Assembly (NCBI GenBank): GCA_902787475.1
Contig: CADAGW010000001.1
Location: 1 to 42,668 of the forward strand
Source: an uncultured Eubacteriales bacterium
GTDB lineage: Bacteria; Bacillota; Clostridia; Christensenellales; Aristaeellaceae
DNA: 42,668 nucleotides
Direction: 5' to 3'
The position numbers were made by a program, and so were the translations under genes. Of this stretch, positions 14,995 to 42,668 are shown in pieces. Position 1 is the stretch's first letter; each line of letters starts with the position of its first letter. The notes beneath the pieces are model-generated. The model was not told the DNA's origin, ran no database searches, and worked only from the letters and a program-made list of their open reading frames with translations.

Positions 14995-15546
14995 ATGAGA
15001 AACCACAAAATATGGAGCCTGATGCTGGCCGCGGCCATGACGCTGTGGCTGATGAGCGGCTGCTCCGCCAGCCGGAACGCCGCCGCGGAGATCGAACCCA
15101 CTTTGGCCCCCGCGCCCACCGCGCCCTTTGTGACGCCCATGCCCACGGGCGGCCCGGCCCCCACCCAGGGGCAGGACACCGATAACAGCCAGGCCAGCGC
15201 CCCCACGCCCATGAACTGGATGCTCCGGGCCGGGGAGGTGGAGGACCGGATCCGCATGTTCTCCGAGATCGAGACCGCCGCGGTGGTGGTGGACGGGGCC
15301 GTGGCCCTGGCGGGCATCACCTTTGACGGGGCCTATCAGGGCCAGCTGACAGAGCGCATACACGACATGGTGGCCGGGGAGATCCAGGCCGCCGACCCGG
15401 CCATACAGACCGTGGGCGTCACCAACGAGGCCGAGGACGTGGCCGCCATACAGACCCTGGCCGCCCAGATCCGCACCGGGGCCAGCCCCCAGGATCTCTC
15501 TGAACGGGTCAGGTCCATACTGACCAACCAGACCACCATGAAGTAA
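14995..15546 (+). CDS. YhcN/YlaJ-like sporulation lipoprotein
   Basis: Lipobox LMSGC, a P/T-rich linker, then IETAAVVVDGAVALAGITF...IQTVGVTNEAEDV...IRTGASP, the typical family pattern. Confidence 0.65.
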   Translation: MRNHKIWSLMLAAAMTLWLMSGCSASRNAAAEIEPTLAPAPTAPFVTPMPTGGPAPTQGQDTDNSQASAPTPMNWMLRAGEVEDRIRMFSEIETAAVVVDGAVALAGITFDGAYQGQLTERIHDMVAGEIQAADPAIQTVGVTNEAEDVAAIQTLAAQIRTGASPQDLSERVRSILTNQTTMK

Positions 15547-15633
15547 TACAGGAACGCTGGGGCCTCCCCGGCCCCAGACCCCGGCCAAAGGGACAAGTCC
15601 CTTTGGAATCCCATCTTCCGCCTTCGGCGGGGA
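15547..15633 (+). repeat. Copy A (short form) of a structured gene-3'-end repeat family
   Basis: Shares gaacgctggggcctcccc and gccaaagggac-N-gtccctttggaatccca-N-ttccgccttcggcgggg with copies at 30960..31166 (reverse) and 42464..42668. It lacks the 111-nt core. Confidence 0.7.
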
Positions 15634-15657
15634 TATGATAATGGACTGCAGTGGCAA

Positions 15658-15699
15658 GCAAAAACGGACAGGCGCTGTATGCGCGCTTGTCCGCTTTGC
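15658..15699 (-). terminator. Long hairpin terminator after the ComEA-like gene (may act bidirectionally)
   Basis: Stem cggacaggcgc / gcgcgcttgtccg with an outer gcaaa/tttgc extension. On the minus strand it is followed by TTTTTGCTT. Confidence 0.6.
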
Positions 15700-30784: not shown

Positions 30785-30884
30785 CGGATTGCCGCGTCGG
30801 CCATACGGCCTCCCCGCAATGACAGGCACGGGGCATAGCGGCCCATCTGTGTCATTGCGAGGAGCGAAGCGACGAAGCAATCCG
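30785..30884. repeat. ~100-bp nested imperfect palindrome (REP/MITE-like) containing tgtcattgcgaggagcgaagcgacgaagcaatcc
   Basis: Outer arms cggattgccgcgtcg / cgacgaagcaatccg. Inner arms (cctcc)ccgcaatgaca / tgtcattgcg(aggag). Confidence 0.6.
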
Positions 30885-30959
30885 TCCCCACTCGATTTCA
30901 TCCCCGCACATACCCGGGCAGGATCTCCTGCGCCGGAATCGTGCAGAGAATAATACCGT

Positions 30960-31166
30960 CCCCGCCGAAGGCGGAAGAAGGGATTCTTAAGGGCCTATGG
31001 CCCTTAAGCCGGGGAGTTTGAGGGGGCGAACGGAGGCACCCGCCAGTGGCGGAATTGTGCCGGAGAAAGCCCAATGAGCAAAGGAGCTTTTGAATATACG
31101 CATTTCAAAAGCGACTATTGCGAATTGAGGATCGCACAGGCCTCAGCGCCTCCCTCCCCTCCCCTA
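30960..31166 (-). repeat. Copy B (full length, reverse orientation) of the structured gene-3'-end repeat family
   Basis: Its reverse complement aligns to 42464..42668. The 111-nt core differs at 4 positions by my hand alignment. The element starts right after the fucosidase stop codon. Confidence 0.75.
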
Positions 31167-41083: not shown

Positions 41084-42463
41084 ATGAATCTGCTGATCGT
41101 CAACGCGGACCAGCTGCGGCATGACATGATCGGTTTTCGGGGTCTTCATCCGGTGAAGACCCCGAATTTGGATCGTCTGGCCGCGGCCTCTACGGTATAC
41201 ACCCGGGCCTTCACCCCTGTGCCTGTGTGCGCCCCGGCCCGGCAGGCCCTTCTCTGCGGGCGGCATCCCGATTCCTTCGGGGCCTCCTGGAACTACGACC
41301 AGATGAAGACCCTGCCCACCCCCACGGTACAGCCCGCCTGGTGCTGGACCCGGCACCTGCCGGACATGGGCTATCAGACGGCCTACCTGGGCCGCTTTCA
41401 CGTGTCCCCCACCTGTAAGCCCGCGGACTTCGGCTACCAGCGGCACGTCAGCTGGCAGGGCCACAAGGATCTTCTCAAATCCAAATACGCCGACGCGGCC
41501 TTTACCGGCGGCTGGCTGGGGTGCACCAGTCCCATCCCCCTGGAGGACACCGGCACCCACTGGATGGCCCGTCAGGCCTGCCAGGTGATCGATGAATTCG
41601 CCGCGGCGAACAAGCCCTGGCACATCTGGGTGGACTACGAGGAGCCCCATCTCCCCTGCCGGCCCAGCGAGCCCTTCGCCAGTATGTATTCCCCCTCCGG
41701 CGTGGACCAGTGGGACGGCTACGGCGACACCTTTTTCCACAAGCCCTACATCCACCGCCAGCAGACCATCTCCTGGGACACGGACGGCTACTCCTGGGAC
41801 GATTTCTCCCAGATGGTGGCCCGGTACTACGCGGTGGTGTCCCAGCTGGACGACGCCATAGGCCGGATCCTCACCAAGCTGGAGGAAACGGGTCAGGCGA
41901 ACGACACCATCGTAGTGTTCACCTCCGACCACGGCGACATGTGCGGCAGTCACCAGATGCTGGACAAGCACTACGTACTCTACGACGACATATGCCGGGT
42001 GCCCTTCATGGTTCGCTATCCCGGCAAGGCGCCCTCCGTGCGGGACGATTTCGTATACAACGTGCTGGATCTGCCCGCCTCCATCGTCCGCTGGCTGGGT
42101 CTTCCGGCCCAGGAGGTGGAGCACGGCGCGCCCCTGCCCCTGTCCCGCGACGAGAACCCCTGCCCCCGCTCCTTCGTGTCCTCTACCGGCGAGGGCCAGC
42201 AGATGGGCCTGTATTCCACCCGCATGATCCGGGACGACCGCTACAAATACGTGTGGAATCTGACGGACGTGGACGAGCTCTACGATCTGGACTCCGACCC
42301 CGGCGAGAAGGTGAACCTCATCGACCGGCCGGAGCACTCTGACCGCGTCGCCGCCATGCGCCGCCTTCTCCACGACCACCTTCTCACCCACAATGATCCC
42401 TTCGCCGGCAACGGCTGGATGGAGAACCAGCTCCTCCGCGGCCGCAAGCACGTGCCGTGGTGA
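41084..42463 (+). CDS. Cys-type sulfatase (cytoplasmic)
   Basis: Canonical C-A-P-A-R-QALLCGR formylglycine motif, N-terminal ADQLRHD, SDHGDMCGSH. No signal peptide. The start lies 1 nt after the upstream stop. Confidence 0.9.
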   Translation: MNLLIVNADQLRHDMIGFRGLHPVKTPNLDRLAAASTVYTRAFTPVPVCAPARQALLCGRHPDSFGASWNYDQMKTLPTPTVQPAWCWTRHLPDMGYQTAYLGRFHVSPTCKPADFGYQRHVSWQGHKDLLKSKYADAAFTGGWLGCTSPIPLEDTGTHWMARQACQVIDEFAAANKPWHIWVDYEEPHLPCRPSEPFASMYSPSGVDQWDGYGDTFFHKPYIHRQQTISWDTDGYSWDDFSQMVARYYAVVSQLDDAIGRILTKLEETGQANDTIVVFTSDHGDMCGSHQMLDKHYVLYDDICRVPFMVRYPGKAPSVRDDFVYNVLDLPASIVRWLGLPAQEVEHGAPLPLSRDENPCPRSFVSSTGEGQQMGLYSTRMIRDDRYKYVWNLTDVDELYDLDSDPGEKVNLIDRPEHSDRVAAMRRLLHDHLLTHNDPFAGNGWMENQLLRGRKHVPW

Positions 42464-42668
42464 GAGGCGAGGGGAGACGAGGAGACGCTGGGGCCTCCCC
42501 GATCCTCAATTCGCAATAGTCGCTTTTGAAATCCGTATATTCAAAAGCTCCTTTGCTCATTGGGCTCTCTACGGCACGATTCCGCCACTGGCGGGTGCCT
42601 CCGTTCGCCCCTCAGACTCCTCGCCAAAGGGACATTGTCCCTTTGGAATCCCATTTTCCGCCCTTCGG
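42464..42668 (+). repeat. Copy C (full length, forward, truncated by the window end) of the structured gene-3'-end repeat family
   Basis: Begins right after the sulfatase stop codon. Modules: purine-rich lead, gacgctggggcctcccc, the 111-nt core, hairpin ccaaagggac-att-gtccctttgg, then aatcccattttccgcccttcgg. Confidence 0.75.

Follow-up and report, generated by a model that had tools for sequence, protein, structure and literature searches.

The window analysed here is the whole of contig CADAGW010000001.1 (C1; 42,668 nucleotides), part of the 2.95-Mb assembly GCA_902787475.1 of an uncultured Eubacteriales bacterium (484 contigs, 62% GC, 86% complete). Three copies of a structured repeat lie in it, behind a YhcN/YlaJ-family gene (copy A), a fucosidase gene (copy B) and a sulfatase gene (copy C), and each begins at the base next to the stop codon of that gene (Table 1), as the original prediction, made from the letters of the window, had placed them. 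The 111-nucleotide (nt) cores of copies B and C differ at exactly four positions: the first hairpin has one in its loop, the linker has two, and the second hairpin has one in its internal loop. None of the four is paired in the consensus fold. The fold of the full copy B reaches -98.4 kcal/mol (z = -4.2), and copy A folds at -45.6 kcal/mol (z = -2.7) on one strand and -48.5 kcal/mol (z = -2.4) on the other. The observation is confirmed, and it is far larger than first reported.

Table 1. Parts of the three repeat copies and adjacent features in the window (positions count from its first letter; K core, inserted 111-nt sequence; R3, a third repeat family).
Feature	Position	Strand	Remarks
YhcN/YlaJ-family gene	14995-15546	+	TAA stop 15544-15546; copy A begins at the next base
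Copy A, whole	15547-15633	+	directly 3′ of TAA 15544-15546
Copy A, preamble	15547-15556	+	short, weakly purine-rich
Copy A, hairpin 1	15557-15577	+	CTGGGGCC-tcccc-GGCCCCAG; loop empty, no K insert
Copy A, C-rich spacer	15578-15584	+	ACCCCGG, mirror repeat of the hairpin 1 3′ arm
Copy A, hairpin 2 and AATCCC	15585-15612	+	CCAAAGGGAC-aa-GTCCCTTTGG; core conserved across phyla
Copy A, hairpin 3 and tail	15618-15650	+	CCGCC-ttc-GGCGG, then GGGA and an A/T-rich tail of ~16 nt
Terminator-like hairpin with T-rich tail	15665-15693	+	downstream of copy A, outside the repeat
Copy B, whole	31166-30960	-	directly 3′ of fucosidase TGA 31169-31167
Copy B, preamble	31166-31147	-	TAGGGGAGGGGAGGGAGGCG, starts right after the TGA
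Copy B, hairpin 1 5′ arm	31146-31139	-	CTGAGGCC, then loop remnant (whole preamble-to-loop stretch 31134-31166)
Copy B, K core	31133-31023	-	111 nt, in the hairpin 1 loop; two folded domains
Copy B, host-module remainder	30945-31022	-	remnant 3′ arm, spacer ACTCCCCGG, hairpin 2, AATCCC, hairpin 3, A/T-rich tail
Copy B, hairpin 2	31008-30986	-	CTTAAGGGCC-ata-GGCCCTTAAG
Copy B, hairpin 3	30974-30962	-	3′ of AATCCC
R3 repeat copy	30850-30889	-	GGGGACGGATTGCTTCGTCGCTTCGCTCCTCGCAATGACA; unoccupied example of a site that K fills elsewhere
Copy C, whole	42464-42668	+	directly 3′ of sulfatase TGA 42461-42463; cut by the contig end
Copy C, preamble	42464-42487	+	GAGGCGAGGGGAGACGAGGAGACG, starts right after the TGA
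Copy C, hairpin 1 5′ arm and loop	42488-42495 and 42496-42500	+	arm CTGGGGCC (preamble-to-loop stretch 42464-42500)
Copy C, K core	42501-42611	+	111 nt, in the hairpin 1 loop
Copy C, hairpin 1 3′ arm	42607-42615	+	GCCCCTCAG; overlaps the K core by 5 nt because the core as first delimited takes in the first bases of the arm
Copy C, host-module remainder	42612-42668	+	rest of 3′ arm (to 42615), spacer ACTCCTCG, start of hairpin 3; cut by the contig end
Copy C, hairpin 2 / AATCCC	42624-42646 / 42647-42652	+	

Copies were surveyed across the whole assembly with iterated nhmmer profiles for the core ("K") and the tail ("T"). The survey returned 117 K and 139 T matches, with an identity between copies of ~75-99%, and these merge into 194 loci: T alone at 99 loci, K-T at 37, K alone at 37, KK at 13, KK′ (two K copies in opposite orientation) at 4, KKT at 3 and KKK at 1. 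These numbers go far beyond chance, and the survey bore out the description of a structured, modular family of repeats that sits at gene ends and is strongly biased in orientation. What had been described as a single family is two: the copies combine a gene-end module, L-T, of which T is the tail, with an independent family, K, and the 111-nt core is a secondary insert. The K and T counts are lower bounds, because 37 of the K matches touch contig ends and the repeats break the fragmented assembly. Contigs often end within K arrays (the window end at 42668 and 37 other contig ends), and the repeat families are among the main reasons why the assembly is in 484 pieces.

The L-T module is ~100-120 nt long, and the order of its parts is constant across the copies listed with their flanks: stop codon, G-rich 9-nt units, hairpin 1, C-rich spacer, hairpin 2, AATCCC, hairpin 3 and an A/T-rich tail. 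The preamble consists in most copies of one to four purine-rich, G-rich 9-nt units (GGGGAGRCG). Hairpin 1, opened by the motif CGCTG, varies in sequence (CTGAGGGC/GCCCTCAG, CTGGGCGC/GCGCCCAG or CTGGGGCC/GGCCCCAG). Hairpin 2 (CCAAAGGG..CCCTTTGG, with arms CCAAAGGGNC/GNCCCTTTGG or CTTAAGGGCC/GGCCCTTAAG) has invariant AAAGGG/CCCTTT arms followed by GGAATCCC, the core of the module being also written AAAGGG..CCCTTTGGAAWCCC. Hairpin 3 is CCGCC(C)-TTC-(G)GGCGG and leads into the A/T-rich tail of ~16 nt. Other roles for the preamble did not fit: the G-quadruplex motif (G3+N1-7)x4 was present in just 9 of 127 preambles; a reverse-Hoogsteen strand in a purine-motif triplex should co-vary with the hairpin 1 5′ arm, which the last 9-nt unit, judged by eye, does not; and pairing between preamble and spacer, which the commonest variant and the copy B fold show, is lost in variants with other spacers.

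Stems co-vary in both the L-T and the K alignments, with a similar pattern of change. In an alignment of 50 L-T copies (23 pairs, 1120 cells), the three helices were 99% paired, double (compensatory) changes occurred in 11 of the 23 pairs and one-sided (G-U type) changes in 4 of the 1120 cells; shuffle and slide controls all scored far below the real helices. Compensation is almost purely Watson-Crick, and both strands of copy A fold equally well. A family constrained as RNA alone normally shows G-U intermediates. The near-absence of G-U pairs and the equal folding of the two strands suggest that DNA hairpins are under constraint at least as much as RNA is, and near-pure Watson-Crick compensation would be the outcome expected of DNA hairpins or of one arm being copied from the other.

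K, 105-111 nt long, is made of a 61-nt rod, in which CTCAAT..ATTGGG closes a CTTTTGAA/TTCAAAAG hairpin, together with a 29-nt hairpin; many base pairs of K alternate between two Watson-Crick states (e.g. GGCAC/GTGCC and GCCGC/GCGGC). Its ends are CCTCAATTCG (5′) and CGTTCGC(CCC) (3′). It was found in the loop of hairpin 1 (junctions marked by slashes: ..GCTCG / GT-CCTCAATTCGCAAT ... CGTTCGC / CCCTCAG..), in the loop of hairpin 2 (GGGCCCAGG / TT-CCTCAATTCGGCAT ... GTGCGC / CCCTTTGG), inside the third repeat family, R3 (..CTTCG / .. / CTCCTCGCAATGACA), and inside the internal loop of other K copies, in addition to head-to-tail K arrays. Four host contexts provided empty and filled sites, and whatever the host, a C-run stands just 3′ of the right-hand junction. 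At 40 of 40 composite loci K shares the orientation of T, and it always lies 5′ of hairpin 2 or hairpin 3. Across genomes, K occurs in 13 of 121 family members and L-T in 14 of 41 relatives searched with a covariance model of L-T, with small overlap: K-like sequences are carried by the family genera G012, G102 and G096 and L-T by other genera (G003, G007, G008, G010 and G016). From these separate sets of carrier genera we conclude that K and L-T are independent families that are nested here.

R3, of the form GGGGACGGATTGCTTCGTC-variable hairpin-CCTCGCAATGACA, is itself abundant (~180 motif copies in the assembly) and often lies just 3′ of L-T tails in the opposite orientation. One R3 copy holds the only IS110-family gene of the assembly (PF02371; an open reading frame (ORF) of 404-419 aa at 1104-2315 of contig C119), with the R3 halves flanking it at ~960-975 and 2527-2565.

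Placement was scored against gene calls from a self-trained codon-usage caller, which are approximate and crude; its stop-codon positions are unambiguous. Over the genome, element and upstream gene share an orientation at 135 loci and oppose each other at 26, so that the claim that the repeat always follows the orientation of the upstream gene stands for the window (3/3) but not for the genome. Among loci with T, 39 lie between convergent genes (193 intergenic regions of at least 30 nt genome-wide), 35 in the sense and 10 in the antisense orientation between tandem genes (756 regions, sense and antisense together; p = 2.5e-4 for the 35:10 split) and 2 between divergent genes (232 regions). Because either orientation counts as co-oriented between convergent genes, distance is the informative measure there, and in 40 of 42 cases the nearer of the two stop codons was that of the gene on the element's own strand (median distance 37 nt versus 161 nt, p = 4e-10), which also rules out a simple replication-strand bias as the cause of the orientation. 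The orientation rule is real and holds at ~78-84% of loci, not always. An element stands at 20% of convergent gene ends, and ~6% of genes carry one. A reading of copies B and C as the two ends of an 11-kb composite cargo is not supported, since ~190 gene-end loci in the genome make two facing copies behind convergent gene ends an expected arrangement.

The junction itself is tightly organised. From the stop codon to the CG of CGCTG the median distance is 19 nt, with modes at 8-10, 16-17, 24-26 and 33-36 nt (9-nt steps), and this interval is 82% purine and 61% G, compared with 55% and 30% after stop codons generally, mostly opening with GGGG, GGGA or GAGG at the first base past the stop. Stop usage at element genes (TAA 45, TAG 41, TGA 38) departs from that of the genome (750, 250 and 1318, respectively; chi-square p = 2e-17), TAG being enriched threefold, and the last two sense codons, and those alone, are purine-enriched. 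The purine tract thereby appears to extend effectively through the two purines of the stop codon. A tract that reaches the stop could result from slippage or conversion of the 9-nt units, or from an insertion preference. Truncation of the upstream ORFs by the element was ruled out, because the fucosidase upstream of copy B aligns with its homologues to the last 1-2 residues and the C-terminal peptides of element genes look ordinary.

Copy A lies within a predicted 3′ untranslated region (UTR), since it stands between a stop codon and a terminator-like hairpin (15665-15693), in keeping with the position first proposed for the repeat; no terminator-like site was found near copy B. The suggestion that the element is itself a terminator module did not hold. 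A GC-rich stem with a U-tract, scored as a canonical intrinsic terminator, is present in just 9 of 99 L-T elements, and hairpin 3 has T-rich sequence before it and mixed A/T after it. Terminator-like sites were found downstream of 22 of 96 elements and of 167 of 813 control gene ends. L-T elements neither add nor replace nearby terminators.

L-T is patchily spread among the relatives: five genera have 18-79 copies, and a genome from another family of the order has 14. These genomes keep the order stop codon, G-rich tract, hairpin 1, spacer, hairpin 2, AAWCCC. A wider scan with the exact pattern AAAGGG-N6-7-CCCTTTGGAATCCC, one genome per species, matched many Oscillospiraceae, Ruminococcus and Clostridia metagenome-assembled genomes and, unexpectedly, Desulfovibrionaceae, Acidobacteriota and Methylobacterium. 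With a wider pattern, 138 copies were counted in Desulfovibrio sp. DV, 90 in Desulfobaculum sp. SPO524 and 15 in Maridesulfovibrio sp. FT414, and the reversed-pattern control gave 0 copies in all genomes. In 16 of 20 inspected copies of Desulfovibrio sp. DV a same-strand ORF of at least 53 aa ends 18-59 nt upstream (at least 88 aa in 15 of the 16, the fetched stretch limiting ORF length to ~170 aa), and the stop codon is TAG in 8 of the 16 ORF-bearing copies and 9 of the 20 overall. Directly after the stop come an AG-rich tract and then (T)GCCTCCGGCGGCC-AAAGGG..CCCTTTGG-AAWCCC-ACCTGGGG..GTTTGATTTGAC, with a TTGATTTG-like tail that resembles the A/T-rich tail of L-T. In Desulfobaculum, a classical terminator hairpin follows a related module. 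On contig 1 of Desulfobaculum sp. SPO524 (749600-750150 and 898600-899150), inverted GCCTCCGGCGGC-hairpin-GAATCCC modules bound a ~300-bp unit that contains a classical bidirectional terminator hairpin and is purine-rich outside both ends; tandem arrays with periods of ~175, 270 and 284 bp occur in this genome as well.

The module is also present in seven IMG/VR viral contigs of 43-67% GC, and K-like ends in four IMG/VR contigs; curated phage and plasmid collections gave no match. Two viral K-like copies (L276 and L278) lie directly 3′ of a TGA stop codon, with conserved ends (CCTCAATTCGCCATGGTCG ... GCTCATTGGG ... CCGCCACTGGCGG ... CCGCCCC) and a different inner hairpin. At the level of strains, five other assemblies of the species have copy A at exactly the same spacing. 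One of these strains (L141) has 8 differences in 32 nt of copy A (15547-15578) and 2 in the adjacent 552-nt gene, and some of the 8 substitutions, which fall in the preamble and hairpin 1, break stem pairs. The divergence of L141 points to rapid turnover or to gene conversion. The element was absent from all 80 loci of fucosidase homologues in metagenomes and other species (these are at most 71% identical and not true close-strain orthologues), and the sulfatase, fucosidase and helD-like genes had no exact-protein match on record.

On balance we lean, with some reserve, towards reading L-T and K as two selfish, non-autonomous, modular hairpin families resembling repetitive extragenic palindromes (REPs), bacterial interspersed mosaic elements (BIMEs) and BOX, which are tolerated in predicted 3′ UTRs and probably act there as an exonuclease barrier or insulator. 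The ~200-nt "element" would then be a composite of two independent non-coding, non-autonomous families. K would enter hairpin loops in a single strand orientation, at a point just before a C-run, with L-T, R3 and other K copies as hosts, and nested and tandem arrays would follow. Both families may be selfish DNA that spreads with the help of a trans-acting enzyme, by recombination or by gene conversion, and their copies would persist where they are harmless or mildly useful, that is in transcribed 3′ UTRs between stop codon and terminator, where the hairpin cluster could act as a barrier to 3′-to-5′ exonucleases or as an insulator, like the REPs of E. coli. Promoter regions and the antisense orientation would be selected against, or avoided by the insertion mechanism. 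We infer mobility from K sites that are empty in some places and filled in others, from the similarity between copies and from the patchiness of the distribution.

Several observations weigh against this reading. No target-site duplication of L-T was detected over 79 loci (the longest word shared by the flank on the stop side and the 3′ tail averages 3.95 nt, compared with 4.05 +/- 0.09 nt for permuted pairs), and neither L-T, with its purine-rich 5′ end and A/T-rich 3′ end, nor K has terminal inverted repeats, so the families are not the classical miniature inverted-repeat transposable element that had been considered at first. Strain-level presence/absence polymorphism was not seen either, copy A being fixed in the five assemblies. 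No mobilising enzyme was identified. The Y1/RAYT transposase (PF01797) is absent from this 86% complete assembly and from G010, G007 and G045, which all have many copies of the repeat, and is present in 3 of 7 repeat-bearing genomes; the TnpB zinc-ribbon (PF07282) is absent from this genome. IS110/IS1111 elements are known to target hairpin repeats. The IS110-family gene was rejected as the mobiliser of K or L-T, being a single gene inserted in R3 and in neither of the two. Tolerance alone would hardly explain why the purine tract starts exactly at the stop codon and why TAG is enriched threefold, and the conservation of the hairpin-2 core and of stop placement between Bacillota and Desulfovibrio fits a signal recognised by a factor equally well or better.

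Such a signal is the alternative that survives best, and we regard it as unlikely but worth weighing. L-T would be a 3′-UTR RNA signal with a host function, its AAAGGG/CCCUUU hairpin and GGAAUCCC being recognised by some broadly conserved protein or RNase. The signal would direct termination without a U-tract, 3′-end processing, mRNA stabilisation or post-termination ribosome handling, and its spread as a repeat would be secondary. The apparent conservation of sequence and stop placement across phyla, with the same core behind the stop in 16 of 20 inspected copies of Desulfovibrio sp. DV and the core again in viral contigs of widely differing GC content, is what gives this reading added weight. 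The geometry at the junction is consistent with it, the purine tract starting 0-3 nt from the stop and hairpin 1 ~18-19 nt on, just beyond the footprint of a terminating ribosome, as are the distorted stop usage at element genes and the frequency of the element at convergent gene ends. However, a host signal sits poorly with a distribution that has gaps even inside a single family (14 of 41 relatives), with carriage by ~6% of genes, with an antisense orientation in 22% of tandem-context copies, with almost no G-U pairs and equally good folding of both strands, with the quick decay of one copy in one strain, and with the mobile-element-like use of the module as inverted ends of the ~300-bp Desulfobaculum unit.

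The core is common to Oscillospiraceae-type Clostridia, Desulfovibrionaceae and some viruses. We tentatively put forward, as a speculative proposal that we think unlikely to hold in full, that this core (purine tract at the stop, AAAGGG/CCCUUU hairpin, GGAAUCCC and TTGATTTG-like tail) may be an unrecognised gene-end signal read by a factor, serving U-tract-less 3′-end formation or mRNA protection, possibly with an RNA triple helix at hairpin 1, and spreading like a mobile element while supplying or reshaping the stop context of the genes it follows.

A role of the DNA structure itself was considered in light of a third co-varying segment. The spacer after hairpin 1 is a mirror of the 3′ arm and hence the parallel complement of the purine-rich 5′ arm (e.g. 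GAGGGC .. GCCCTCAG-ACTCC; GGGGCC .. GGCCCCAG-ACCCCGGCC; GAGAGGCT .. AGCCTCTCAG-ACTCTCTGG). Over 46 distinct haplotypes the mirror score exceeded that of permuted pairings at z = 9. The relation recurs in 17 distinct elements of six other genera with quite different stems (0 of 500 permutations reached the score), among them GTCTCC-ATA-CCTCTG in a low-GC genome of another family. A purine arm, then a pyrimidine arm and a pyrimidine third segment is the order that Holder et al. (PMC4666352) class as a pyrimidine-motif intrastrand triplex, and hairpin 1 with its spacer could form such a triplex in DNA or RNA. L-T copies might then be cruciform or intrastrand-triplex (H-DNA/PIT-like) sites with a part in chromosome biology, e.g. 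gyrase or nucleoid-protein binding, replication pausing or recombination, as proposed for BIMEs and BoxC/PIT/TMECO. We consider this improbable, even though the three-way co-variation, the segment order and the restriction of compensation to Watson-Crick changes all agree with it. It predicts neither co-orientation with the upstream gene nor a start at the stop codon; the third segment sometimes has A instead of T opposite A-T pairs; C+.G-C triplets need low pH; and the direct-repeat relation is also significant (z = 7.6), so that the third segment could be an alternative pairing partner. Unlike L-T, the TMECO of E. coli, a 37-nt purine-motif element, shows no preference for either strand with respect to genes (Holder et al. 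2015, PMC4666352).

Rfam 15 gave no match at gathering score over the whole window, in agreement with the original prediction, which had recognised no known RNA family, and around copy B the search at E <= 5 returned solely chance matches to eukaryotic long non-coding RNA models. That every copy is a small RNA gene with transcription of its own, or a regulator like a riboswitch, as the strong folds of copies A and B and the co-varying stems might suggest, is very improbable, given that no promoter-like site was found at or in copies A and B, that elements start at the stop codon of the upstream gene, that there are ~140-190 copies per genome with no Rfam match and that divergent (promoter) regions are avoided.

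At least three repeat families form a visible share of the intergenic DNA of this genome. To our knowledge, small interspersed repeats have been studied well in Proteobacteria and pneumococci and hardly at all in the dominant gut and rumen Clostridia. If the module does affect mRNA 3′ ends, ~6% of genes and 20% of convergent pairs would share one post-transcriptional control element. Current models of repeat spread do not extend to a stop-codon core in a different phylum, a threefold TAG enrichment or the triplex-type co-variation of hairpin 1. On the practical side, the repeats account for contig breaks in such metagenome-assembled genomes, and annotation and RNA-motif searches should mask or model them.

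A literature search by sequence words and topic found no description of these repeats, and L-T and K are abundant, previously undescribed non-coding repeat families. Integron attC sites were rejected as an identity, the copies being dispersed over contigs, on both strands and after ordinary genes of all sizes (an integron integrase was not searched for). ERIC/IRU and Correia elements are, like L-T and K, folded repeats of ~100-150 nt, and ERIC and Correia are co-transcribed with flanking genes, their orientation mattering for the RNA fold and the fate of the mRNA; they differ in having terminal inverted repeats and, in Correia, TA target duplications, neither of which is seen here. BoxC/PIT-type intrastrand-triplex repeats were reportedly dealt with by Hoyne et al. 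in 2000. BoxC/PIT/TMECO and L-T are interspersed, intergenic, G/C-rich repeats of many copies in which three consecutive segments co-vary as a triple helix would require; compared with TMECO, the triplex-compatible part of L-T, recognised from sequence, is one sub-module of the pyrimidine-motif type within an element that is gene-oriented as a whole. REPs stabilise mRNA 3′ ends, and those near stop codons affect translation. The REP/BIME repeats of enterobacteria and pseudomonads share with L-T and K the abundance of GC-rich extragenic hairpins, their place mostly after gene ends within transcription units, the forming of mosaics and the upkeep of stems by Watson-Crick compensation. An assignment to REP/REPIN was rejected: the units here are much longer (~100 nt, with three different hairpins and a purine tract) than the REP palindrome of ~20-40 nt, lack the GTAG/GTGG tag, stand at most loci as a single copy in one orientation and not in alternating inverted pairs (REPINs) as the basic unit, and have no Y1/RAYT beside them in this genome. 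In behaviour the repeats here resemble BOX of Streptococcus pneumoniae (boxA-boxB(n)-boxC). Both systems are modular, non-coding and intergenic, with ~100 or more copies, stable folds, no known transposase of their own and a fixed order of hairpin modules in which the middle module is absent or tandemly repeated (here T, K-T, KK-T and K arrays). The likeness is one of function and does not show homology; the sequences share no similarity, K is independent and also inserts in other hosts and in itself, placement relative to stop codon and gene orientation is much stricter here, and the core motif of L-T is common to several phyla.

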